The notes under the pieces: generated by a model
The model's database searches: none
The model's input: the letters and a program-made list of their open reading frames with translations, nothing else
What the model was told of the DNA's origin: nothing
NCBI GenBank assembly: GCA_964534905.1
Contig: CAZHPZ010000001.1
Location: 21,719-85,718 of the forward strand
Direction: 5' to 3'
From: an uncultured Lachnospiraceae bacterium
GTDB taxonomy: Bacteria; Bacillota; Clostridia; Oscillospirales; CAG-272
DNA: 64,000 nt
Translations under genes and position numbers: made by a program
Part shown: positions 7,863 through 61,432 of the stretch, piece by piece
How the letters are laid out: each line of letters begins with the position of its first letter
Position numbering within the stretch: the first letter of the stretch is position 1

Positions 7863-7945
7863 TAAAAAACTCGGGCGCGGTGAAAATTCCCGTGCCCGAT
7901 TATGATTTTTGTGCAAAATGTAGAAAAATACGAATGAAAATAGGG

Positions 7946-7963
7946 CGCCTAATATATTATTAG
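7946..7963. repeat. Left arm of an 18-bp perfect inverted repeat (candidate inverton IRL; also part of a local imperfect palindrome)
   Basis: CGCCTAATATATTATTAG is the exact reverse complement of 8098-8115. Confidence 0.8.
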
Positions 7964-7981
7964 ACGCCTTTTGTTGCTCTA

Positions 7982-8010
7982 ATTTTACTCTTTTTTGTGA
8001 TATTTGTCAA
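7982..8010 (-). promoter_or_regulatory. Strong leftward sigma-A-type promoter inside the IR-bounded segment
   Basis: On the minus strand, TTGACA (8010-8005), a 17-nt spacer, then TAAAAT (7987-7982). Confidence 0.6.
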
Positions 8011-8026
8011 TACATTTTGGAAAATA

Positions 8027-8055
8027 TTGTACCGTAAATTGCTTTTTCTTAAAAA
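8027..8055 (+). promoter_or_regulatory. Weaker rightward promoter inside the IR-bounded segment
   Basis: TTGTAC (8027-8032), a 17-nt spacer, then TAAAAA (8050-8055). Confidence 0.35.
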
Positions 8056-8097
8056 AATATTCGTCATTTTAACTCAAAATCAGTGTTTTTTGGACGC

Positions 8098-8115
8098 CTA
8101 ATAATATATTAGGCG
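8098..8115. repeat. Right arm of the 18-bp perfect inverted repeat (candidate inverton IRR)
   Basis: CTAATAATATATTAGGCG. It is locally part of the 9-bp-stem palindrome CGCCTAATA-ATA-TATTAGGCG. Confidence 0.8.
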
Positions 8116-8336
8116 AACTCTTTCGCGGGTGCCGAGGGTGTTCGGAAAGCTCGGGCGGAGTAAAATCACTTGCACAAGGCTTTAATTTTTCAGGTGCGGC
8201 GATGATACTTTCCCGACGGCTGTTTTTTATCCGTGCGTTATTTGCGTAAACGCTTCGGAGTGAGGACGGCGGAGAGCGTTTGAGGTGCCCAAATCAAAAC
8301 AAAAATAAAAACAAAATCAAAAAGGAGATTTTTCTT

Positions 8337-9539
8337 ATGAGAAAAAATCAAAAGGGTTTTACCCTCGTTGAATTGCTCGTAGTAATCGCTATCCTTGCTA
8401 TTCTTGCAACCGTTGCGGTAGTCGGTTATTCAAGCTTTATCGACAGTGCAAACAAGAGCGTAGACCAGCAGGTAGTTGCTCAGATGAATACTGCTCTCCA
8501 GGCAGCTTCCGTTGAGGGCAGACCTCAGAACAGAACAGATCTTCTCAAACTGTTCGATAAGCACGATATCGACATAAACAAGCTTGCTCCCGTAACAGAG
8601 GGATATGCTTTCTATTGGGATATGACGGAAAATAAGATAGTTATCGTTAACAATGTTAAGGATATTGAAGAGGATTGGGAATATATTGTATCTAACGGCT
8701 TTGGTAAGTTGACAGAGGCAGAAAGTGTAGAATACATAACTTCCGCTATTTCCGAATCCAGTAAAACAAATCCTGCTCTTATTAAGTTGAGCGGCGATGT
8801 TACGACGACAGAATGCATTACTGTTACTGAAGAGCAGTGCGTAATAATTGATTTGAACGGTCACACGATTGGTTATGAAAACAGTGATAAACTCGCACTT
8901 CAGGTAGAAAAGGATGCAACATTGACTGTTAAAAACGGAGATATCAAGGGAAAAGTTAATAATGTCGGTGGACATTTAACTCTTGATCATGTAAATGTAA
9001 ATAAAGAAGCTGATAGTGAAGTCAAAGGTGCATTGGCATTTAGCCGCGCTTCCGATACTTATATTACAAATTGTACTTTTACAGCGGATAAAAACGCCGG
9101 ACATACTATCGGTACAAACAGCACCTATGATGCTGATGATGGCGCACGTGTGTATATTATAGATTCAAAAATATATCAAACAAGTGATGAAACTTACCCT
9201 GCCGCAGCACTTAATATCACTATTGATTGCGATATAACTATTAATCATTGTAAAGTTATAGGTGTAGGTCACGGTGCATACTTCCGCGGATGCACTGCCA
9301 CTCTCATCAATTCCACATTTACACATACTTCTACAAAAGACGGTACACCTTGGGGAACAGGAAATAACGGAAAATTTGCCGACATCGTATTTGCTTGCGG
9401 AGGAGAAAACTTTAGCGGCTATGCAACAACTGCTAACTACACTTGCGAAAAAGTAACCGCAACAACTGTATACGTACATCAGCCCGAGGGCGGTACAGTT
9501 ACTGTTAGCGGAATAGAAGTTAACGAAACTTATAATTAA
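8337..9539 (+). CDS. Prepilin-type (type IV pilin-like) protein with a large C-terminal domain predicted to be a parallel beta-helix
   Basis: Class III signal: MRKNQKG/FTLVELLVVIAILAIL. The C-terminal 250 aa carry repeated turns NCTFT, INHCKVIG and LINSTFTH. AAGGAG RBS precedes the ATG at 8337. Confidence 0.75.
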   Translation: MRKNQKGFTLVELLVVIAILAILATVAVVGYSSFIDSANKSVDQQVVAQMNTALQAASVEGRPQNRTDLLKLFDKHDIDINKLAPVTEGYAFYWDMTENKIVIVNNVKDIEEDWEYIVSNGFGKLTEAESVEYITSAISESSKTNPALIKLSGDVTTTECITVTEEQCVIIDLNGHTIGYENSDKLALQVEKDATLTVKNGDIKGKVNNVGGHLTLDHVNVNKEADSEVKGALAFSRASDTYITNCTFTADKNAGHTIGTNSTYDADDGARVYIIDSKIYQTSDETYPAAALNITIDCDITINHCKVIGVGHGAYFRGCTATLINSTFTHTSTKDGTPWGTGNNGKFADIVFACGGENFSGYATTANYTCEKVTATTVYVHQPEGGTVTVSGIEVNETYN

Positions 9540-9854: not shown

Positions 9855-9885
9855 ACTTGAGTAAATTAAATATCGGACTAAAGAA

Positions 9886-10031
9886 TAGTTAGAGGCGCGG
9901 TTAAGAATAGTAGCCTCCCGTAGACGCTCAAACGTTGATGACGGGGTGTGAAAGGCAAGACCGCCGAAGTGAATTTCGCTTTTGAGGGCGTTATTTGCTG
10001 GGCAAACGGGGAACACCCGCTTGACTGTCAC
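9886..10031 (+). promoter_or_regulatory. Lysine riboswitch (L-box) aptamer
   Basis: All the L-box islands I remember from Bacillus lysC are present in order: AGAGGCGCG, AGTAGCC, GTGAAAGG, CGCCGAAG, TTATTTGCTGG, ACTGTCA. Confidence 0.85.
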
Positions 10032-10084
10032 AATTTTTTGTGGAGTGCTGCTTTCGATATGGTGATCTTTTGCGGGATTATTGC

Positions 10085-17118: not shown

Positions 17119-17195
17119 TGGGATATAGCCAAGCGGTAAGGCACCAGACTTTGACTCTGGCATTTTCGATGGTTCGAATCCATCTATCCCAGCCA
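17119..17195 (+). tRNA. tRNA-Gln (anticodon UUG)
   Basis: Acceptor TGGGATA/TATCCCA, anticodon stem CCAGA/TCTGG with loop CTTTGAC, T-arm GATGGTTCGAATCCATC, encoded CCA. Confidence 0.95.
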
Positions 17196-17197
17196 AA

Positions 17198-17234
17198 ATG
17201 CACGAGGGGACAAAGTCCCCCTCGTGCATTTTTT
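17198..17234 (+). terminator. tRNA-Gln terminator
   Basis: ATGCACGAGGGGAC / GTCCCCCTCGTGCAT stem followed by TTTTTT. Confidence 0.85.
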
Positions 17235-17324
17235 CTTGTGTTGTATATTCGAACTTCAAATCCGTAGGATTTGCAGACCTGCGAGCAGTTATTATCAATA
17301 ACGAACAAACTCTCGCGCAGGTCG

Positions 17325-17388
17325 GGTTCTGAATCCATCTATCCCGGTCAAAGAATGCACAAGGGGAAATCCCCTTGTGCATTTTTTT
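17325..17388 (+). repeat. Degenerate duplicate of the tRNA-Gln 3' half plus its terminator (att-like remnant)
   Basis: GGTTCTGAATCCATCTATCCCGGTCA aligns with GGTTC-GAATCCATCTATCCCAGCCA at 17171-17195. The hairpin ATGCACAAGGGG/CCCCTTGTGCAT with a T-run mirrors 17198-17234. No matching 5' acceptor strand lies upstream. Confidence 0.75.
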
Positions 17389-17418: not shown

Positions 17419-17446
17419 TTGAATTTTTTAAAAAAAGTAGTATAAT
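17419..17446 (+). promoter_or_regulatory. Promoter of structured RNA copy A
   Basis: TTGAAT, a 16-nt spacer, then TATAAT. The -10 is followed by the conserved AAATTTGCCAAAC, as in copy B. Confidence 0.6.
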
Positions 17447-17657
17447 AAATTTGCCAAACTAACTTAATAATTGTGACTTGCGGTATTATTTTATCTTTAG
17501 GGATAGTTATACCTTTTTTTGCACACACTTATCTTATGAACTTGATAAAATGCAAATTCCATCTGGTAAGTGTGGTAATACCCATTTCACAAAGAGTTAG
17601 TTTGGCGACTATCGGGGTTTGCGTTTTGGTGCGGTTGCTTCGGTAGCCGCACTTTTT
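17447..17657 (+). ncRNA. Unclassified structured RNA or leader, copy A (long irregular hairpin, conserved tail and terminator)
   Basis: 12-bp closing helix 17453-17464/17595-17606. Nested helices close on the conserved loop TTGATAAAATGCAAATTC. A UUCG-capped 10-bp terminator occupies 17629-17652 and is followed by a T-run. The helix covaries with copy B. Confidence 0.6.
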
Positions 17658-17718: not shown

Positions 17719-20013
17719 ATGATTAAAAAATTCAATGTAGAACTTGAAGGACAGATTGAGTTTTATGAGCAGTATTTGAAAGTTGTTGATCCTAATTTAA
17801 CTTATGAAGATATTTTTCGTAATAATACGGATGGTATATTAAACGGAAATTTGTTAGAATTTAAGTTAAATATAACAGATCTTAATGCATGCTTGCTTCA
17901 AACAATAAAGTACCTTTCCGCTATGCGAATAAAGGGGGAACCGATACCGGCAAATATTCTATTGGTTTCATTAAATACCGCAACAATTTATTTATATCGT
18001 TCGGTAGACTACCTGAACTATATTGAAACGGTTTATGTTGGCGGAGCATCAAAAGAAAACAAAGGGTTTGTTGCTCATAGCTTTGCTAAAAAACTCGAAT
18101 ATTGTGAAAATCAGGCAGATGAATTTACTTTGATTCAATTGCTCAAAGAAAAAAATTATACCAAAATTCATATTGACGAAAATTGTATTGTCGGTTGGGC
18201 AGAGAAATATTATAAAGAAAATCCGCAGGCGAGAAAAGCCGATTTTATCGGTGATACCACGGGAAAGGTCAAGATTATCGGGGAAATACGTGATCCAAAC
18301 AAATTTAATGATTATATTTATGCCTACGATGGAAAAGATAATGTTCGTTTTCAATATCTTATGGATAAACTCAACGATACCATACAAAAGAAAAATTTGG
18401 GGGCTTTTTATACTCCCGAGCCTTATGCTGATAAATCCATTGAGTTGGTTCGTGAAGCAATTACCAGAGTTCCGCAAGGTAATGATTATATAATTTTGGA
18501 TCGTTGTGCGGGAACCGGAAATCTTGAGAAAAGATTGACGGACGAGGAGTTATCTCATTGTATTGTTTCAACTATTGAATATTATGAATACAAGGTTTTA
18601 CTTGAAGTATTAGGTAGCAAAGTCAGATATATTATTCCGCCTACGGAAAAAGAAGATACTTTTAATATGGGACTTGTTCGTGGTGCTGATGCACTATCGG
18701 AAGAATACATAAATAACCCTGTGATAAAACAGTATATTGATAATCCAAAATGCACAGTTATTTTATTCGAAAATCCACCTTATGCCGAAACTACCTCGTT
18801 GGAACATCAACGGACAAAGCAATCGGCAAATTCGTCGGGTTGGAAAAACACTTTTGTTGTTAAGGAGATGAAAAAGGAAGTTAAGGGAGCTGTTTCCAAT
18901 GATTTGGGAAATGCTTTCATTTGGTCTGCGTTTAAATACTATTTAAGGCAACCTACCGATAGTTATATTGTTTATTCTCCCGTTAAATATTGGAAGTCAC
19001 AACATTTGATAAACAAAGAATTTATAAAAGGGTTTGCTTTTAATCGTAAACATTTTCATACCAATATCGAAGCCTGCATTATGTGTGCATTATGGTCAAA
19101 TGTCGATAAAAATATTTCCTCAATAAAAATTACCGGTTATGATATTTTAAGCAACAATCAATTGAGTGATCCTATTACTTTATATGTCGATAGAATTTAT
19201 AAATTGTTTAGCACAAGGTATTATAATAAAAACAGCCTCGACGATGTATCTTTTGATGGGATTTTAACAGGACTTAACGGTTTGGAGACGGAAAATGGCG
19301 TTAAATGCCGAATTAAGCCATTATATTCCAAAGATATGTTGGGCTATTTAGTTGCAGATAGCGTTGGCTTCGATAATCCGGATGCAAAATCAAGTTTATT
19401 AGTTGCGGGCAGATATAATGGAAATGGTTGCTATATAAGGAAAGATGATTATCTTGACAAACTACCAATGTTTTGTGCAAGTAGATACATTACTTACAAT
19501 AGAGAGTGGACGGAAAGAGCAAGAATTATGAAATCTGCAGACGGTGCCAATAGATTTTTTGATGATGTTCAAAACGGAACGTTAAATCAGTTTTTGCTCA
19601 AATGTCTTGTTTTTACTTGCTTTGAAATGCAGAATCATATGAGAACATTTATAGGTTCCGACGCTCGTTTTTACAGAAACGAACTATGTCTTGATACTAC
19701 TAACGGGGAAACGTTAGCAAGCACTGATTTAAAAAGATTACGTGCTAACAATAAAGAAAAAGAAATGTTTGAACTTTGGAATTTGATTTTATCAAAAGCC
19801 AAGAGAACAAAAAATTACAATCCCGACTTAACATACGGAATCTACCAAATATTTACCGAACTTAATATTTTCACGCGTGACGAAATAACCGGTGTAAATA
19901 TACCCGATTATCCTGAATTGAACGGACATTTGAAATCATTAAAGCAAAAAGTCAAAGAATATTACAATTCGGAAATTGTCCCTGTTTTATTTGAATATGA
20001 ATTTTTGAAATAA
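17719..20013 (+). CDS. Single-chain Type IIG-like restriction-modification enzyme (N-terminal putative D-X8-E-X-K nuclease, gamma-class N6-adenine methyltransferase, C-terminal specificity region)
   Basis: Motifs in order: TDGILNGNLLEFK, LGAFYTPEPY, ILDRCAGTGNL (SAM motif I-like), ILFENPPYAETT (motif IV). Strongly AT-rich codon usage. Confidence 0.7.
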   Translation: MIKKFNVELEGQIEFYEQYLKVVDPNLTYEDIFRNNTDGILNGNLLEFKLNITDLNACLLQTIKYLSAMRIKGEPIPANILLVSLNTATIYLYRSVDYLNYIETVYVGGASKENKGFVAHSFAKKLEYCENQADEFTLIQLLKEKNYTKIHIDENCIVGWAEKYYKENPQARKADFIGDTTGKVKIIGEIRDPNKFNDYIYAYDGKDNVRFQYLMDKLNDTIQKKNLGAFYTPEPYADKSIELVREAITRVPQGNDYIILDRCAGTGNLEKRLTDEELSHCIVSTIEYYEYKVLLEVLGSKVRYIIPPTEKEDTFNMGLVRGADALSEEYINNPVIKQYIDNPKCTVILFENPPYAETTSLEHQRTKQSANSSGWKNTFVVKEMKKEVKGAVSNDLGNAFIWSAFKYYLRQPTDSYIVYSPVKYWKSQHLINKEFIKGFAFNRKHFHTNIEACIMCALWSNVDKNISSIKITGYDILSNNQLSDPITLYVDRIYKLFSTRYYNKNSLDDVSFDGILTGLNGLETENGVKCRIKPLYSKDMLGYLVADSVGFDNPDAKSSLLVAGRYNGNGCYIRKDDYLDKLPMFCASRYITYNREWTERARIMKSADGANRFFDDVQNGTLNQFLLKCLVFTCFEMQNHMRTFIGSDARFYRNELCLDTTNGETLASTDLKRLRANNKEKEMFELWNLILSKAKRTKNYNPDLTYGIYQIFTELNIFTRDEITGVNIPDYPELNGHLKSLKQKVKEYYNSEIVPVLFEYEFLK

Positions 20014-39309: not shown

Positions 39310-39338
39310 TTTACAAATGTCGATGATTGTGCTATAAT
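39310..39338 (+). promoter_or_regulatory. Promoter of structured RNA copy B
   Basis: TTTACA, a 17-nt spacer, then TATAAT, followed by GAAATTTGCCAAAC. Confidence 0.65.
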
Positions 39339-39559
39339 GAAATTTGCCAAACAAGTTGAATAAAAAAGCGGGTATATATTAGCATAACTATACCTTTTTT
39401 CATCATACCATTTTACAATTTGATAAAATGCAAATTCCGATGGAATGGTGAAAAAATTATATGATCATATGCTTGATTATATTGCTTTGCTTTCTTTAAC
39501 TTGTTTGGCGACAATGGAGTTTGCGTTTTTGTGCGCTGACTTCGTTGGCGCACTTTTTT
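39339..39559 (+). ncRNA. Unclassified structured RNA or leader, copy B
   Basis: Closing helix 39346-39357/39498-39509. Inner 18-bp helix 39395-39412/39439-39456 caps the conserved loop TTGATAAAATGCAAATTCC. The terminator occupies 39531-39553 and is followed by TTTTTT, ending 27 nt before the next ATG. Confidence 0.6.
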
Positions 39560-39586
39560 ATTTATATTTTGAAAGGAGAAAATATT

Positions 39587-40804
39587 ATGAAAAAGAAACT
39601 TTTGTCCATGATTTTGGCGTTTCTTACTTTTTTGGTGTTGTCATCGTTGTTCGTATCCTGTATCATTTTGTATCCCTACGATTCAACATCGACAGACAAG
39701 AACGGACAGATTATTAAACCGAGTGAGAGTGATTCTGTAGTCGATAGTACAATAACTAAGTCGAGTAGTGAAAAAACAGATTCTAAATCTGATGATGATC
39801 CTGAATATGAGGCAATGGACTTCTTTAAGGAGGACGTAAGTCAGTGGGTAACTCTCGGTCAGTGGCAGAATATGAAGGTAGAGGTGTCTATGCTTGAGGT
39901 ACCCGAGGATTATATAGATAAACAGATAAATGTCGCGCTTTTCCAGAGCAGTCTCTATACAAAGGTAGAAGAGGGTACGGTTACCGACGGAGTTATATTT
40001 AACTTCGACTATACCGGATACATCAACGGAGTTCGCTTTGAGGGCGGCTCGGCAACGAATACGAGCGCATATATAGACGGAAATGATTTTATAACCGTTA
40101 CCACGAGCGGTACGGGAATGTTCATCGACGGCTTTGCACAGGGAACACTCGGCGCCAAGGTCGGAGAGACAATAGACGTTAACGTTACGTTCCCCGAGAA
40201 TTATTCCGAAAAGGATTATGCGGGCAAGGAAGCCGTTTTCAAGGTAAAGATAAATTATATCTATAAGACCGAGCTTACGGACGAAAACGCAAGCACTCTT
40301 TCAAGCAAGAAGTATACGACTGCGGAATCCTTCAGAGCATATCTTAAGGATTATATTGACGAGAGCCTTGAGGAGAATAATATAGCTACTCTTTGGGGGC
40401 AGATTGTTAAGAACGCTACGTTTATCGAGATTCCCGAGCAGGAATTCAACTATATGTTCAACGCTTTCAAATCAACCATAAATTCGCTTACCGCTTACGG
40501 TATTACATATGAGCAGGCGCTTCAGTATTACGGATTTGCGGACGAGGAGGAGCTTAAGGAGTACACCAATGACCTTATAAAGAGCGAGCTTGTCGTTTAT
40601 GCGATAATGCAGGCAAACGAGATCGACGCGTCCGATGAGGAAATTGCGGCGAAGCTTACCGAGCTTGCAAAGGAAGCCGAAAAAACAGAGGACGAATTTG
40701 TCGAGGCATACGGAATGGACTACGTTAAGCAGAAGGTAATGCTTGAAAAGACGGATGCTCTTGTACTCGGCTCAAACACATTCGTGCTTGAGACAGATAA
40801 ATAA
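39587..40804 (+). CDS. Trigger-factor-like FKBP-type PPIase lipoprotein
   Basis: Lipobox LFVSC. PPIase segment GVIFNFDYTGYINGVRFEGG...FIDGFAQGTLGAKVGE, plus a helical C-terminal domain as in trigger factor. Confidence 0.65.
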   Translation: MKKKLLSMILAFLTFLVLSSLFVSCIILYPYDSTSTDKNGQIIKPSESDSVVDSTITKSSSEKTDSKSDDDPEYEAMDFFKEDVSQWVTLGQWQNMKVEVSMLEVPEDYIDKQINVALFQSSLYTKVEEGTVTDGVIFNFDYTGYINGVRFEGGSATNTSAYIDGNDFITVTTSGTGMFIDGFAQGTLGAKVGETIDVNVTFPENYSEKDYAGKEAVFKVKINYIYKTELTDENASTLSSKKYTTAESFRAYLKDYIDESLEENNIATLWGQIVKNATFIEIPEQEFNYMFNAFKSTINSLTAYGITYEQALQYYGFADEEELKEYTNDLIKSELVVYAIMQANEIDASDEEIAAKLTELAKEAEKTEDEFVEAYGMDYVKQKVMLEKTDALVLGSNTFVLETDK

Positions 40805-42073: not shown

Positions 42074-43075
42074 ATGCCGGGACCAGGCGGAGGATCAAGA
42101 GGAGGCGGCTTCGGAGGAGGCTCACGAGGCGGCGGATTTAGCGGCGGAGGCGGCAGACCGGGCGGCTTTGGCGGCGGTGGAAGACCGGGACCGGGCGGAC
42201 CGAGACCGGGTGGCTTCGGAGGCCCTCACGGACCGATGCATCACGGACCGCGTCATCACAGACCGTTTTTCCACAGACCTTTCTTTCACAGACCTTACGG
42301 CGGCGGAGGCGGTTGCCTCGGCAGTATGTTCGGAATGATCATTTCGATCTTTTTTATAGGAATTTTGCTTTTTGCACTCTTGTTCGGAGGTGTGGCATCG
42401 CTTTTTAACGGTTGCAGCTTTGAAGCGGTGAACGGCTATGACGAGAGCGCCCTGCAGGAATATGCAAATAAGCAGTATGCCGTTGCGTTCGGAAATACCG
42501 ATGATTACGAGTCAAATATACTTTTGGTATTTACAGTTTATAACGATTACAGCGGATACGAAACGATTGCTTTTGTTGGATATAATATCGATTCCGATAT
42601 ATCGAATATGTACGGAAACGAATATACCGATTACGGTATTGCCGTTATGGCTTATATGCCCGATTATTATGAATATTCGATATCAAAAAATCTTGCGGAC
42701 ATAGTTGAATCTATGCAGGAAAAGACCGCAAGGTACGCAAGCGCGGACGGCGAGGTCGACACAAGCTTTTCAAAGCTGATTAACAATTCAAATCTTGTCT
42801 CGATGAACGAAGAAACCGTAAATAAGGCACTCGTTTCCTTTACCGAGAAGACGGGCATCAGCATTGCGGTGGTCGTTGCCGACGGAGTGGACGTTTTCGG
42901 AGAATCCAAGGAATTTGAAATTCTCGGAATAATTGCGATAATTATCATCGCAGTCATCGCTCTCGTTGCTATTTTCAGCAAGAGAGGCGGAGGCAAGAGC
43001 GGAAGCTCGGCATCGAAAACCGATCCCAATGCGGGACAGGGAAAATATGATCCCAATACAGGCACTTATACCTGA
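42074..43075 (+). CDS. Membrane protein with a Gly/Arg/Pro/His-rich low-complexity N-terminus
   Basis: About 80 aa of GGSRGGGFGG and HRPFFHRPFFHRPY repeats, then a TM segment, a domain of about 190 aa, a second TM segment and a basic tail. GGAGG RBS. Confidence 0.6.
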   Translation: MPGPGGGSRGGGFGGGSRGGGFSGGGGRPGGFGGGGRPGPGGPRPGGFGGPHGPMHHGPRHHRPFFHRPFFHRPYGGGGGCLGSMFGMIISIFFIGILLFALLFGGVASLFNGCSFEAVNGYDESALQEYANKQYAVAFGNTDDYESNILLVFTVYNDYSGYETIAFVGYNIDSDISNMYGNEYTDYGIAVMAYMPDYYEYSISKNLADIVESMQEKTARYASADGEVDTSFSKLINNSNLVSMNEETVNKALVSFTEKTGISIAVVVADGVDVFGESKEFEILGIIAIIIIAVIALVAIFSKRGGGKSGSSASKTDPNAGQGKYDPNTGTYT

Positions 43076-58660: not shown

Positions 58661-61432
58661 ATGAAAAAAAGCAGAATATTGATAGCGCTTTTGGCATTAT
58701 CATTAATTCTCACATTGGCAAGCTGCGAGTTTTTCGATCTTTTAAAGGATCAGAGAGCGGAGGCTGTTACCACAATCGAAGCAATTGTAAAAGAGGAGAG
58801 ATTCGCTTCTCTTAGCGAGGATGACATTTCCGATGTTTTAAACACTGCATTGGAGGCAATCAATGCGGCAAAGAGCGAGGACGAAATCACTCAGGCATTG
58901 AACAATGCAAGAGATTCGCTTGATAAGCTTTTGCTTGACGCCGCCAAGGCAGACGCTAAGGCAGAGCTCAGAGCTTATGTAAATCTTGAGCTTTACAGCG
59001 ATGCAAATAAGGCGCTTATCGAATCCAAAATAAGCGAGGCAGAGGCGAAGATCGACGCTTGCAAGAAGGGCACGGATATCACACCGATACTTGACGAGGC
59101 AAAGGCCGAGATAAGTAAAATCGTTCCCGCGCTTGACGAGGCGAAGAGCGGTGCAAAGAGCACACTTGATTCATACGCAACATCTACGGAGTACACCGAG
59201 GCAAACTGGGCTCTCATTGAGGGTAAGATCCTTGAGGCTAAAACCGCAATCGACGCTTGCGAAAGCGTTGAGGCAGTAGCAACGGCTCTTGAAAATGCCA
59301 AGGCGGCAATCGATGCTGTTCCTACAATTCTCGGACAGGCAAGAGCGGACGCTATATCCGAGCTTGAGTCCTACATTACAGACAAGACGCTTTACAGCGA
59401 AAACGGTATTGCACAGATCGACAGAATTATTTCAGATGCAAAAGAAAACATTAATTCCGTCAGCGACGAGAGCGTTATCACCGCTATCGTTGAGGATACA
59501 AAGGCAGATCTCGATAAGGTTTTGACTCTTAACGAGGAGTTTGAGGCGGCTGCAAAGGCGTTCAAGGAATCTCTCGTCGTAAGCGTTAACGATGGTGATA
59601 TACTTAACGACAAGCTCTACGCGGACGGTGCAAGCGTTATTGCCGACGTGGCAGAGGGTAATTCCACAAGAGTATATTTCGGAAGTCAGGACGGCAATAC
59701 AGCAACGGTTTTCGATGCATATCTTACAATTGATTACCGTAGCACGGAATGGTCTGTCGTTACACTCTATTTCCGCGCGTGGGACGACTCCACTGCGTAT
59801 ATAGCTGATATCAGAGACGGCAGAACAGAATTCGTAAAGGGCTTCTGGAATAACGATCTTGGCGGTAAGGACAGAACGACCATTATTAAATCCAACACCG
59901 GTATAGAAAACGGCAAAGAGGTTCATCTCCAGGTTATCAGCTGGGGCTGGACAAAGATGATTCTCATCGACGGCGAATGCGTATTTAAGACCGTTGAGGA
60001 TGATTATAACGCAGGCAGAATCTATATCGAAACATGGCAGGCAGGCTGGACTCTCAGAAATCCTGTATATAAGGAATATGCATCCGACGCAGAGCTTGAG
60101 GCGGATTACGCAGACGAGCTTGCAAAGACTTGCGTAAACAAGAGCGAGGCTGAATTGCTTGCAGAGGCTAAGACAGCGGGCAAGAGTGCGATCGCATCTC
60201 ATCTCACCGACGTTGAAACAACGTACAGCACAGCAAATCAGGCTGCTATTTCCGGTATTATCAGCGCAGGTAACACTGCAATTGATTCCTGTACATCTAT
60301 TGATGCGGTTAACGCAGCAGTAGAGCAGGTAAAGAAGAATCTTGACGGCGTTCTTACAATAGCCGAGGAGAACGAGCTTGCAACAGCTAAGACTAATGCA
60401 AAGGCAGAGATCGCAGGATATCTTAAGGACGTAGAGACAAATTACACCACAGCGCGTCAGACAGAAATCAGCGGAATTATTTCCGAGGGAAATACCGCTA
60501 TTGACGCATGTGCATCCAAGGCCGAGCTTGAGGCTGCGGTAACAAGAATCAAGGCAGCTCTTAATGCGGTTCCCACTCTTAAGGATGAGTCCGATACGGC
60601 TCTCATCTCAAAGAAGGACGCAGCAAAGGAAGAGATAGCAGGATATCTTAAGGACGTTGAAACAAAATACAGCACAGCAAATCAAACAACAATTTCGGGC
60701 ATTATTGCAAACGGAAAGATCACTATCGCAGGCTGCACAAGTGCAGAAGACGTAGACTCTGCCGTTGCGGCAATAAAGGCAGAGCTTGACGCGGTTCTTA
60801 CCATAGAGGGTGAGAAGATCGCGGCAAAGAACGCAGAGCTTGAAGCGTTCAAGGCAACTCTTTCGAACGTAGACAAGGATCTCATAAGCAAGATGACCGT
60901 TAAGGACGGAAAGCTTGTAGTCGATTCCAAGCAGGCAGGTCTCGGCGGTACATTCAAGTTCGGTACGCAGACCGGCAATATGAACAAGGCGATCGACTTC
61001 TATATGACCGTTCATTACAATACAACGCAGTGGTCAAGTGTATCGGTTTCCTTCTGCGCATGGGACGCGAACACAACTCTCAAGATGGAAATAACGAACG
61101 ACAGCATTAAGATCTACCGTTGCACATGGGGAGACAACGGTCCCCAGAAGGAGCTTCTTGTTGAGCATTCAACCGGTGTTGCAAACGACAGCGAGGTTCA
61201 CATTCAGATAATCACAAGAGGATGGACAAAGGCAGTTCTTATTGACGGCGTATGTATCCTCAAATACTGGCCCAACGAATTCCATGAGGGATACACAATG
61301 TTCTCTACATGGGAGGCAGGATTTGAACTCAGAGACGTTATTTATAACGTATACGGCTCGGAGGACGAGGTAACTGCGGATTACGGCGCCGAGCTTGCAA
61401 AGGATTCCATACATCCCGTCGAAGGCTATTAA
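58661..61432 (+). CDS. Repeat-rich surface lipoprotein: two blocks of FIVAR-like helical repeats, each followed by a beta-rich domain of about 175 aa
   Basis: Lipobox LTLASC. At least seven helical units with the pattern Y..AN...I......A..AID.C.S...V..A....K..L..V.T. The two beta domains are paralogous (WTKMILIDGECVFK vs WTKAVLIDGVCILK). Confidence 0.7.
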   Translation: MKKSRILIALLALSLILTLASCEFFDLLKDQRAEAVTTIEAIVKEERFASLSEDDISDVLNTALEAINAAKSEDEITQALNNARDSLDKLLLDAAKADAKAELRAYVNLELYSDANKALIESKISEAEAKIDACKKGTDITPILDEAKAEISKIVPALDEAKSGAKSTLDSYATSTEYTEANWALIEGKILEAKTAIDACESVEAVATALENAKAAIDAVPTILGQARADAISELESYITDKTLYSENGIAQIDRIISDAKENINSVSDESVITAIVEDTKADLDKVLTLNEEFEAAAKAFKESLVVSVNDGDILNDKLYADGASVIADVAEGNSTRVYFGSQDGNTATVFDAYLTIDYRSTEWSVVTLYFRAWDDSTAYIADIRDGRTEFVKGFWNNDLGGKDRTTIIKSNTGIENGKEVHLQVISWGWTKMILIDGECVFKTVEDDYNAGRIYIETWQAGWTLRNPVYKEYASDAELEADYADELAKTCVNKSEAELLAEAKTAGKSAIASHLTDVETTYSTANQAAISGIISAGNTAIDSCTSIDAVNAAVEQVKKNLDGVLTIAEENELATAKTNAKAEIAGYLKDVETNYTTARQTEISGIISEGNTAIDACASKAELEAAVTRIKAALNAVPTLKDESDTALISKKDAAKEEIAGYLKDVETKYSTANQTTISGIIANGKITIAGCTSAEDVDSAVAAIKAELDAVLTIEGEKIAAKNAELEAFKATLSNVDKDLISKMTVKDGKLVVDSKQAGLGGTFKFGTQTGNMNKAIDFYMTVHYNTTQWSSVSVSFCAWDANTTLKMEITNDSIKIYRCTWGDNGPQKELLVEHSTGVANDSEVHIQIITRGWTKAVLIDGVCILKYWPNEFHEGYTMFSTWEAGFELRDVIYNVYGSEDEVTADYGAELAKDSIHPVEGY

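Follow-up and report, generated by a model that had tools for sequence, protein, structure and literature searches.

The DNA considered here is a stretch of 64,000 nucleotides (nt) from an uncultured Lachnospiraceae bacterium; this whole stretch is called the window. It encodes a structured RNA, copy B, which stands between a promoter and an open reading frame (ORF) for a trigger-factor-like peptidyl-prolyl isomerase (PPIase), and a paralogous RNA, copy A, in another part of the window. The features of the two loci are listed below; helices come from the minimum free energy (MFE) fold where this is stated.

39310-39338, forward strand: sigma-70-type promoter of copy B, with -35 box TTTACA, a 17-nt spacer carrying an extended -10 TG, and -10 box TATAAT (11/12 match)
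39345-39559, forward strand: whole unit of copy B (sensor, tail, terminator and U-run), about 215 nt
39346-39360, forward strand: 5' strand of the closing stem P1, GCCAAACAAGUUGAA, at the 5' end of the transcript; its partner is 39495-39509
39370-39395, forward strand: side hairpin P3, GGGUAUA/UAUACCU, with the conserved UAUACC-U-run block (MFE fold)
39396-39455, forward strand: arm P4 (39396-39412 / 39439-39455) around the apical hairpin (MFE fold, partner-swap test)
39416-39437, forward strand: conserved apical hairpin P5, CAAUUUG-AUAAAAUG-CAAAUUC, 6-7 base pairs (bp)
39459-39482, forward strand: extra small hairpin UAUAUGAUC..., specific to copy B (MFE fold)
39495-39509, forward strand: 3' strand of P1 (...AACUUGUUUGGC) (MFE fold, family covariation)
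39501-39514, forward strand: candidate alternative mini-hairpin H, UUGU-UUGGCG-ACAA, sharing bases with the 3' strand of P1 and with the first part of the antiterminator strand
39512-39525, forward strand: conserved tail CAAUGGAGUUUGCG, 5' strand of the antiterminator
39531-39559, forward strand: intrinsic terminator GUGCGCUGAC-UUC-GUUGGCGCAC plus U6, with 10 pairs of which 6 are GC (stem 39531-39553, T6 39554-39559)
39572-39579, forward strand: ribosome-binding site (RBS) GAAAGGAG, in the gap between the T-run and the ATG
39587-40804, forward strand: ORF for a secreted or lipid-anchored, trigger-factor-like FKBP PPIase (Pfam FKBP_C and Trigger_C)
17419-17446 (promoter) and 17452-17657 (RNA), forward strand: copy A, paralogue of copy B, scoring 181.6 bits with the covariance model described below

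An earlier sequence-only reading of this locus had described a promoter, a nearly continuous hairpin and a terminator directly ahead of the PPIase gene, and much of that description holds. The promoter is present where it was placed, and from its position the transcript probably starts at about 39344-39345. The closing helix forms a perfect 12-bp core (GCCAAACAAGTT at 39346-39357 with AACTTGTTTGGC at 39498-39509), which grows to 15-17 bp in the MFE fold, and the inner helix (39395-39412/39439-39456) appears in the fold as well. The terminator was located correctly, together with its T6, but its stem counts 10 bp and not 9. The hexamers AGCATA and TATGCT (39381-86/39468-73), thought to pair, are indeed complementary, although the pair is absent from both the MFE fold and the family consensus. 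Two features have to be redrawn. What was taken for an open 26-nt loop contains the 6-7 bp hairpin P5, whose 3' strand with its flanks (UGCAAAUUCC, 39429-39438) is complementary to the tail, and the overall shape is a three-way junction, turned in copy B into a four-way junction by the extra hairpin at 39459-39482.

The RNA is far more stable than its composition would predict. A 220-nt stretch over copy B folds at -75.4 kcal/mol, compared with -40.6 ± 3.9 kcal/mol in shuffled versions (z = -9.0; none of 200 shuffles was as stable), and the fold of copy A has z = -6.3. The ATG of the PPIase gene at 39587 lies 27 nt past the T-run and the RBS occupies part of this gap, as had been claimed. A promoter scan between the terminator and this ATG found no usable promoter for the gene. 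The sole promoter-like match in the gap (39561-39588, 9/12) cannot serve the ORF because its -10 box covers the ATG.

Does the RNA belong to a known class? In the window, Rfam 15 at the gathering threshold gave no match at the coordinates of copy B. When copy B, copy A and a typical relative (L114) were compared with Rfam at E <= 10, nothing credible was returned, the best scores being 18-29 bits against cut-offs of 58-170; 6S, T-box, c-di-GMP-I/II, ydaO and raiA are among the families thus covered. The published literature, searched in full text by sequence strings and by topic, contained no description of the RNA; what matched were primers, by chance, and reviews of a general kind. A curated or published counterpart of the family was thus not found; the principle of a terminator competing with an antiterminator is itself classical. 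What is unusual is the combination of apex-to-tail strand exchange, an expression platform conserved like the sensor, and portable attachment to unrelated accessory or prophage genes.

A covariance model of 213 positions (R1) and a profile hidden Markov model find exactly two copies in the window, A and B, even with the filters of R1 switched off. Copy B scores 127 bits with R1 (E 1.6e-23, model positions 1-213 aligned) and has an nhmmer E of 1.9e-29. The 19-mer TTGATAAAATGCAAATTCC, common to both copies, occurs exactly twice in the window, where 0.04 occurrences are expected. Copies A and B have 75% column identity and differ in a compensatory manner; copy A belongs to the other of two subfamilies (the GAC-UAUCGG / GUAG type). 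An 18-bit match to R1 at 7946-8190 was spurious and reflects unrelated palindromes. A pair of related AT-rich palindromes, GGGCGCCTAATATATTATTAGACGCC and GGACGCCTAATAATATATTAGGCG, encloses about 125 nt of intergenic DNA at 7944-8117, upstream of a gene that starts at 8338.

Family members were gathered by sequence-pattern scans of viral contigs, GTDB species genomes and metagenome contigs. In viral contigs, the loop 19-mer pattern retrieved seven true relatives, and the 3' block GTTTGGCGAC-N3-4-GGNNTTTGNGTTTT gave 11 matches, all of them true. With a relaxed 3' block, genomes (one per GTDB species) yielded at least 115 distinct members, about four of the matches listed being false. An independent pattern, directed at a different part of the RNA, recovered at least 72 true members from metagenome contigs, and every one of these that is not interrupted by a contig end has the same tail and terminator. 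The counts for genomes and metagenomes are lower bounds, and the family counts given below are drawn from the matches listed. Altogether more than 190 members are known from metagenome-assembled genomes (MAGs) of gut and rumen Clostridia, from metagenomes and from some prophages. All of these, at least 190 in number, have one orientation relative to promoter and terminator. The RNA is carried by uncultured Clostridia of the gut and rumen, which bear the labels Oscillospiraceae, Acutalibacteraceae, Ruminococcaceae, Christensenellaceae, Borkfalkiaceae, Faecousia and Fimenecus. Sampled genomes have one to three copies; most of the 8-kb loci examined hold a single copy, and they contain neither partial second copies nor flanking repeats. 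One locus (L029:2159-2702) carries a tandem pair of family RNAs, separated by about 100 nt, before a gene for a small Cys-rich peptide.

The members share a common plan: a -10 box, the 5' sequence GCCAAAC, a three-way-junction sensor, a conserved tail and an intrinsic terminator. A -10 box with at least four of six matches is present in 101 of 107 loci, and in 97 it ends 6-7 nt 5' of the G of GCCAAAC; a TG extension is found in 81 and a -35 box in 78. The fixed spacing between the -10 box and GCCAAAC indicates that the transcript begins at P1. This closing stem (5' GCCAAAC / GUUUGGC 3') contains 13 covarying pairs, for example alignment columns 34/250 (AU36/UA33/CG26) and 37/247 (UA52/CG41/AU9), and the terminator stem also covaries across the family. 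The interior of the sensor is too variable in length for MAFFT and was assessed by folding single sequences and by a partner-swap test. Single-sequence folds give the three-way-junction shape in 89 of 111 members, while 15, including copy B, have one extra hairpin (shape [[][][]]). In the partner-swap test, strands of P4 pair with their own partners at -16.9 kcal/mol and with swapped partners at -6.3 kcal/mol, the swapped partner being equally good in 1.2% of trials; for P2 the values are -14.8 and -7.2 kcal/mol, with 5.6% of trials.

The long arm of the sensor, about 22 bp, is tipped by the conserved hairpin GAAUUUG-AUAAAAAUG-CAAAUUC, and a small hairpin displays a conserved AU-rich loop; P3 of copy B is a variant of this GGG/CCC hairpin with its AUAnUAUA loop. 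Unpaired or invariant blocks are the 5' bulge GAAUA after P1, the P3 loop with its UAUACC-U-run, the apical hairpin, GUUUGGCGAC, the tail C(U/A/G)AUCGGAGUUUGCG-U5-7 and the terminator GUGCG...CUUCGG...CGCAC. A sensor in which covarying helices surround conserved unpaired nucleotides is what is expected of a riboswitch aptamer. The structure belongs to the RNA and to one strand only, because G-U pairs are frequent and R1 scores the reverse strand of copy B at 34 bits, against 127 for the given strand (29 and 182 bits, respectively, for copy A). A natural mini-variant (L108:343-483) lacks the whole P4/P5 arm, and its antiterminator is mismatched.

An RNA some 200 nt long that folds as a rod-like, irregular hairpin, with its 5' and 3' ends paired, a promoter of its own, one or two copies per genome and a variable context, also recalls 6S RNA, and the family might be a lineage-specific RNA of this kind, binding RNA polymerase holoenzyme as a mimic of the open promoter. 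This is hardly credible, however: the 6S model (RF00013) gives no match even at E <= 10, the sensor is a three-way junction with an unpaired stretch on its 5' side only and not a two-sided central bubble, and the tail, the antiterminator and the tightly coupled ORFs have no 6S counterpart.

The 3' part of the unit appears to be a bistable switch. The tail strand C-N-A-U-C-G-G-A-G is complementary to the terminator loop and the upper part of the terminator 3' strand (CUUCGGUNG), and this antiterminator (alignment columns 260-269/294-303) is paired in 97.2% of cells among 104 members. Four of its nine pairs vary on both sides, as at columns 261/302 (UA39/AU37/UG16/GC5). None of 500 shuffles equals the pairing, and no slid register comes near it. 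In copy B the helix joins 39512-39521 to 39538-39547, with a 1-nt deletion on both strands. On geometric grounds antiterminator and terminator should be unable to coexist, since the linker crossing the 9-bp helix would be 1 nt at most.

The two helices are also finely balanced. When either is enforced, the energy of the antiterminator minus that of the terminator has a median of -0.1 kcal/mol (10-90% range, -3.6 to +3.2). If the base of the terminator is forbidden, the loss is 0.1 kcal/mol for real tails but 10.4 kcal/mol for dinucleotide-shuffled ones, and it is smaller for the real tail in 104 of 104 members. The MFE structure of copy B is the antiterminator state (-74.2 versus -70.3 kcal/mol), and that of copy A is the terminator state. 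In these models the tail thus appears tuned to the terminator and has no obvious purpose besides competing with it. The candidate hairpin H is indicated as a further alternative: at its columns 250/261 the counts are UA38, AU33, GU27 and UG4 with 2 other, 99.5% of cells are paired, and 0 of 500 shuffles reach this value. Forming the 4-bp H, over GUUUGGCGAC, instead of P1 would cost about 13 kcal/mol. The alternative partners form a chain of columns, 34:250, 250:261, 261:302 and 302:292. As in an attenuator, then, a terminator stands before a promoterless co-directional ORF and is opposed by a covarying alternative helix of comparable stability.

The tail has a second potential partner. Its segment GGAGUUUGCG is complementary over 10 bp to UGCAAAUUCC, which comprises the apical hairpin's 3' strand and one or two bases beside it; in copy B, 39516-39525 would pair with 39429-39438. 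Between tail and apex, 98.9% of cells are paired; the figure is 98.1% in the metagenome set, which was retrieved independently. In 160 of 161 members, the tail finds its most stable duplex within the sensor at the apex (-13.9 kcal/mol, compared with -4.1 kcal/mol for the apical hairpin alone). In the set selected by its tail, covariation between the two strands was weak (Fisher p = 0.03) and was for this reason retested in the metagenome set, where neither strand was constrained. There, a tail U->C change is accompanied by an apex A->G change in three members of different subfamilies (AU56, GC3, GU2, AC1; p ~0.001, one-sided hypergeometric test from the counts). Such events are sparse because both strands are nearly invariant. 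The antiterminator and the tail-apex pairing exclude each other because both use GGAG.

Does the unit also lie 5' of ORFs in other genomes? In 91 of 111 distinct loci, a co-directional ORF with an RBS follows within 150 nt of the U-run, and in 71 the distance from U-run to ORF start is 16-37 nt. Of the remaining 20 loci, eight are interrupted by contig ends, several have an ORF slightly farther away and about five face a convergent neighbour. The proposal of the sequence-only reading that the RNA is a cis-acting leader or attenuator, with its gene expressed by readthrough, is supported by this position of the ORFs, by the covarying isoenergetic antiterminator and by the small number of convergent neighbours.

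It is therefore likely, in our judgement, that copy B belongs to an uncurated family of 5' leader RNAs of about 200-215 nt that are portable, cis-acting transcription attenuators. The conserved structure, the two competing folds with their energetic balance, the complementarity of tail and apex and the position ahead of promoterless ORFs are observed; we infer that termination is regulated, which way the switch works and what kind of effector it has. Transcription would start at the first base of P1, which would close the three-way-junction sensor. If the tail then pairs with the terminator loop and upper 3' strand, its GCG also pairing with the terminator GUGC, an antiterminator would form and the polymerase would read through into the ORF. 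If the tail is instead captured by the apical 3' strand UGCAAAUUCC, the terminator would be free to fold, transcription would stop and a stable RNA of about 210 nt would be released. Control of access to the apex would set the outcome: an occupied or occluded apex would lead to antitermination (ON), and a free apex, by capturing the tail, to termination (OFF). This control might be exerted by an effector that binds the sensor, be it a small molecule, a protein or a second RNA.

Some familiar modes of sensing were considered and rejected. A leader peptide is improbable by inspection, as the apical AUG is ACG in about one quarter of the members and has no RBS. Sensing of tRNA in the manner of a T-box was suggested by the UGGC in GUUUGGCGAC, which could match the GCCA end of tRNA, but the downstream genes include none for aminoacyl-tRNA synthetases or amino-acid functions, and Rfam gives no match. 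H has the hexaloop UUGGCG, but no second matching hairpin was seen that would make up an ANTAR-type dual hexaloop.

The same RNA might instead be a stand-alone small RNA (sRNA) of about 210 nt that acts in trans, its conserved AU-rich loops pairing with targets or binding a chaperone while the ORFs make use of leaky readthrough. A strong promoter of its own at fixed spacing, a terminator sequence conserved like the body of the RNA, conserved single-stranded loops, one to three copies per sampled genome, the loci with a convergent next gene and the absence of conserved synteny would all suit an sRNA. Yet the 71 ORFs that start so close to the U-run have their own RBS and leave no room for a promoter, an isoenergetic tail, present in 104 of 104 members, would be useless to a pure sRNA, and no target complementarity was found. 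We regard the sRNA as improbable.

Which genes follow the leader? Among 88 downstream proteins, LRR_5 (BspA-type) proteins number ten, membrane proteins with an N-terminal zinc ribbon five, AMP-binding proteins three and MazE/AbrB proteins three; most belong to no family. Others are lipoproteins and small Cys-rich peptides, as well as proteins of the dockerin, PASTA, Ltp, CHAP, collagen and lectin types. When 687 flanking ORFs were clustered, neither flank showed conserved synteny and no partner gene recurred. The gene set had been called unusual for a metabolite riboswitch, and the functional diversity of the downstream genes and their lack of synteny bear this out. The module thus precedes accessory genes, mostly of the cell envelope, and in one clade the packaging and structural operon of a prophage. 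A Cys-rich peptide of about 52-123 amino acids with the motif CLGNGE(Q/H/R)GFECCCDECDY(Y/L)L is found behind the leader in four MAGs (L029, L055, L059 and L079). The gene behind copy A, an ORF of 764 amino acids at 17719-20013, had been taken for a restriction-modification enzyme; searches of Pfam, PADLOC, NCBIfam and PDB sequences gave no match, so that this assignment is unsupported and the product is an orphan protein.

In the prophage clade the RNA heads a long array. On two IMG/VR contigs (L004:1-9232 and L006:887-5576) it precedes genes for a lipoprotein, the small and large terminase, portal, a ClpP-like protease, a cement protein and the (major) capsid protein, all on the strand of the RNA. 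Several viral contigs end 0.3-2 kb upstream of the RNA, and PHROG annotation upstream of it in two viral contigs (L003 and L006) gave no matches. In the late leader of phage lambda, a short promoter-proximal transcript is likewise terminated. The family could therefore be a phage-type processive antitermination site, comparable to lambda PR'-tR' with Q, to N/nut or to HK022 put, at which RNA or DNA recruits a protein or modifies the polymerase and the alternative hairpins are secondary. The viral contigs, which place the unit at the leader position of a late operon before terminase, portal and capsid genes in the same layout as in lambda, agree with this, and many cargo genes are of the prophage 'moron' type (Ltp, CHAP, MazE/AbrB). 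Most members, however, precede single chromosomal genes with no phage genes nearby. The unit stands at the head of an operon, where processive antitermination would have it, in the prophage clade but not at most loci; no factor gene and no conserved neighbouring regulator gene were found, nothing recognisable lying upstream in L003 and L006, and a covarying isoenergetic antiterminator favours competition of hairpins at a single terminator. A processive antitermination site is accordingly a doubtful explanation, on a par with the sRNA, and the cis-acting attenuator remains the preferred one.

The family RNA is enriched behind tRNA and transfer-messenger RNA (tmRNA) genes. A co-directional tRNA or tmRNA gene is found 70-710 nt upstream in 12 of 60 genome loci (L015, L023, L024, L034, L040, L042, L044, L045, L049, L058, L061 and L065), where about one is expected by position, and the same is true of copy A. 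RNA-led genes thus seem to sit in flexible islets that flank tRNA genes. Just upstream of the copy A promoter, a terminator hairpin comes after tRNA-Gln(ttg) (17119-17195); some 155 nt downstream there is a partial repeat of the tRNA 3' end with 80% identity (17326-17350) and a second such terminator hairpin (~17350-17385). The repeat within 17119-17385 looks like an att-type scar or a pseudo-tRNA. Elsewhere in the window there are a canonical lysine riboswitch (9882-10058, 105 bits), an ORF with Gly/Arg-rich tandem repeats of the GGxRGG type and no Pfam family just after tRNA-Gln(ctg) (42074-43075), and a 104-nt repeat in three copies with 219-225-nt spacing (60179-60726).

Has the leader always belonged to the PPIase gene? 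The protein aligns with TIGR00115 over residues 86-392, below the cut-off, and a signal peptide with a lipobox-like sequence replaces the ribosome-binding domain of trigger factor. Orthologous loci at 91%, 65%, 56%, 50% and 42% identity lack the family RNA, and the terminator-like hairpin upstream of the gene is another one. The surroundings are retained: the convergent short-chain dehydrogenase gene downstream at the 65%, 56% and 50% loci, and yceD and rpmF ahead of the PPIase gene at the 65%, 56%, 50% and 42% loci. Similarity to the 91% orthologue begins only at residue 70 (window 39587-39793 compared with P0002/P0005; loci L134-L140). The first 69 residues, made up of the signal peptide, the lipobox-like sequence and a Ser/Asp-rich linker, are unrelated to the transmembrane anchor and Thr-rich linker of the orthologues. 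Because similarity stops at this point, promoter, leader, RBS and 5' coding end were swapped in recently, and the junction marks a breakpoint of recombination within the 5' coding region that introduced the leader. As judged from these sequence comparisons, the unit is a portable module and not an ancestral feature of the PPIase gene. At four orthologous loci (L135:1385-1500, L136:1380-1500, L137:180-294 and L140:1360-1500), another conserved element lies between rpmF and the PPIase gene: it consists of GCGGAATTTCCTATAAAATAAGG, then the hairpin AGGGAC-N22-GTCCCT and T7, at a distance of about 30 nt from the start codon. This element, too, may be a leader that depends on readthrough.

Portability of this kind raises the question of whether the element acts as DNA, for example as a miniature inverted-repeat transposable element (MITE), an invertible promoter segment or an attC-like site, its RNA structure being incidental. 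P1 resembles terminal inverted repeats of 13-17 bp around about 140 bp, the unit is missing at orthologous PPIase loci even at 91% identity while the first 69 codons were swapped along with it, copies are enriched just downstream of tRNA and tmRNA genes, and surface-protein cargo is typical of phase-variable loci. Against these points, copies from the same genome have diverged with compensatory changes in every helix; the inner helices show covariation, and through its G-U pairs the fold is specific to one strand. There are few copies per genome, the 8-kb loci contain neither partial second copies nor flanking repeats, and the promoter is found at a constant distance outside the inverted repeats. 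With the promoter directly outside the 5' repeat, a simple structure of terminal inverted repeats and target-site duplication is unlikely. Nor does the window hold many near-identical copies, as would be usual for a MITE, but two that are 75% identical. The sequence-only reading had held that a recent mobile insertion with near-identical copies throughout the genome would refute the leader model; A and B are not near-identical, being diverged paralogues of two subfamilies, although the placement of the unit before the PPIase gene is evolutionarily recent. An integron attC site was also considered and rejected, since GCCAAAC/GUUUGGC departs by one mismatch on each side from RYYYAAC/GTTRRRY, cassette arrays are absent and strand specificity depends on G-U pairs. 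An element acting as DNA is very improbable and, like each of the other three explanations set out above, less likely than a cis-acting attenuator.

Several observations nevertheless weigh against such an attenuator. P1 has at least 13 bp of nearly invariant sequence, which makes a classical ligand-gated P1 unlikely. The expression platform is conserved like the sensor, which is atypical of riboswitches and would be expected of an sRNA in which the terminator belongs to the working molecule. The conserved loops are AU-rich and resemble a site for binding protein or RNA more than a metabolite pocket. Because P1 is long and invariant, the loops AU-rich and the platform invariant, a metabolite is no more likely as effector than a protein or RNA. 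No function is shared by the downstream genes, whereas a shared pathway or transport process is usual for a riboswitch regulon. About five loci have a convergent neighbour, and the PPIase orthologues at 50-91% identity lack the leader, so the PPIase gene does not need it. Finally, covariation between tail and apex rests on few events, and their pairing would be a pseudoknot that has to span two arms, of about 28 and 22 bp; a correlation of -0.3 between arm lengths is uninformative either way.

If termination is controlled in this way, what might the signal be? A bolder and rather unlikely proposal is that the family is a new global class of signal sensor for the flexible genome of gut Clostridia, or that the terminated RNA acts in trans. 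As a sensor, it could be a riboswitch for a second-messenger-like or physiological signal that gates newly acquired surface and accessory genes and a prophage late operon by exchange of strands between apex and tail. In trans, the invariant apical strand UGCAAAUUCC of the product of about 210 nt could bind paralogous leaders during their synthesis, at the invariant tail GGAGUUUGCG, and thereby impose termination across the family. This would amount to an RNA-only feedback circuit that counts copies and is common to host genes and prophages.

New riboswitch classes and new RNA-protein regulators come mainly from orphan structured leaders. The present family is abundant in uncultured Oscillospiraceae, Acutalibacteraceae, Ruminococcaceae and Christensenellaceae of gut and rumen microbiomes, and its switch, with terminator and antiterminator of equal energy and a sensor apex complementary to the tail, is unusually explicit. 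The kinds of gene it leads, those for surface proteins (BspA-type and others) and lipoproteins as well as a prophage packaging operon, shape host and phage interactions. One module on unrelated, recently acquired genes may show how foreign genes are placed under a common control signal. The covariance model can now be used to annotate several hundred intergenic regions that are at present blank.

How does the family compare with known systems? Among riboswitches with a terminator and an antiterminator, the cyclic di-GMP classes (c-di-GMP-I/II), which precede surface-protein genes in Clostridia, come close: they too have a covarying multi-helix sensor closed by P1, a terminator opposed by an alternative helix, several copies per genome, surface genes downstream and copies in phages. 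The present family differs in having no Rfam match, a long and invariant P1 and a platform conserved like the sensor, and its regulon lacks functional coherence and is not preserved at orthologous loci. The mutually exclusive chain of apical 5' and 3' strands, apical 3' strand and tail, tail and terminator 3' half, and the two terminator halves recalls multi-segment attenuators of the trp and pyr type with their 1:2 / 2:3 / 3:4 pairing, although there is no leader peptide, TRAP site or PyrR site. The cobalamin riboswitch offers a parallel for a long-range contact between sensor loop and platform that would decide the outcome; there the contact is a kiss between loops, whereas here a predicted 10-bp strand exchange would open the stem of a hairpin. 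The lambda PR'-tR' '6S' RNA with Q and the HK022 put leaders are also promoter-proximal terminated RNAs, of about 200 nt, and one clade of the family adjoins a terminase-portal-capsid operon. In contrast to them, the RNA of this family itself encodes the competition of hairpins, and most copies are chromosomal and precede single genes; Q-, N- or put-like features were not found, no search aimed at them having been made. Repeats and MITEs such as ERIC, Correia and RUP resemble it as imperfect intergenic palindromes of about 165 nt that are portable and carry expression signals. Unlike these repeats, the family has one to three copies per genome, diverged paralogues with compensatory substitutions, a strand-specific fold with G-U pairs, and a non-palindromic tail with a terminator attached.

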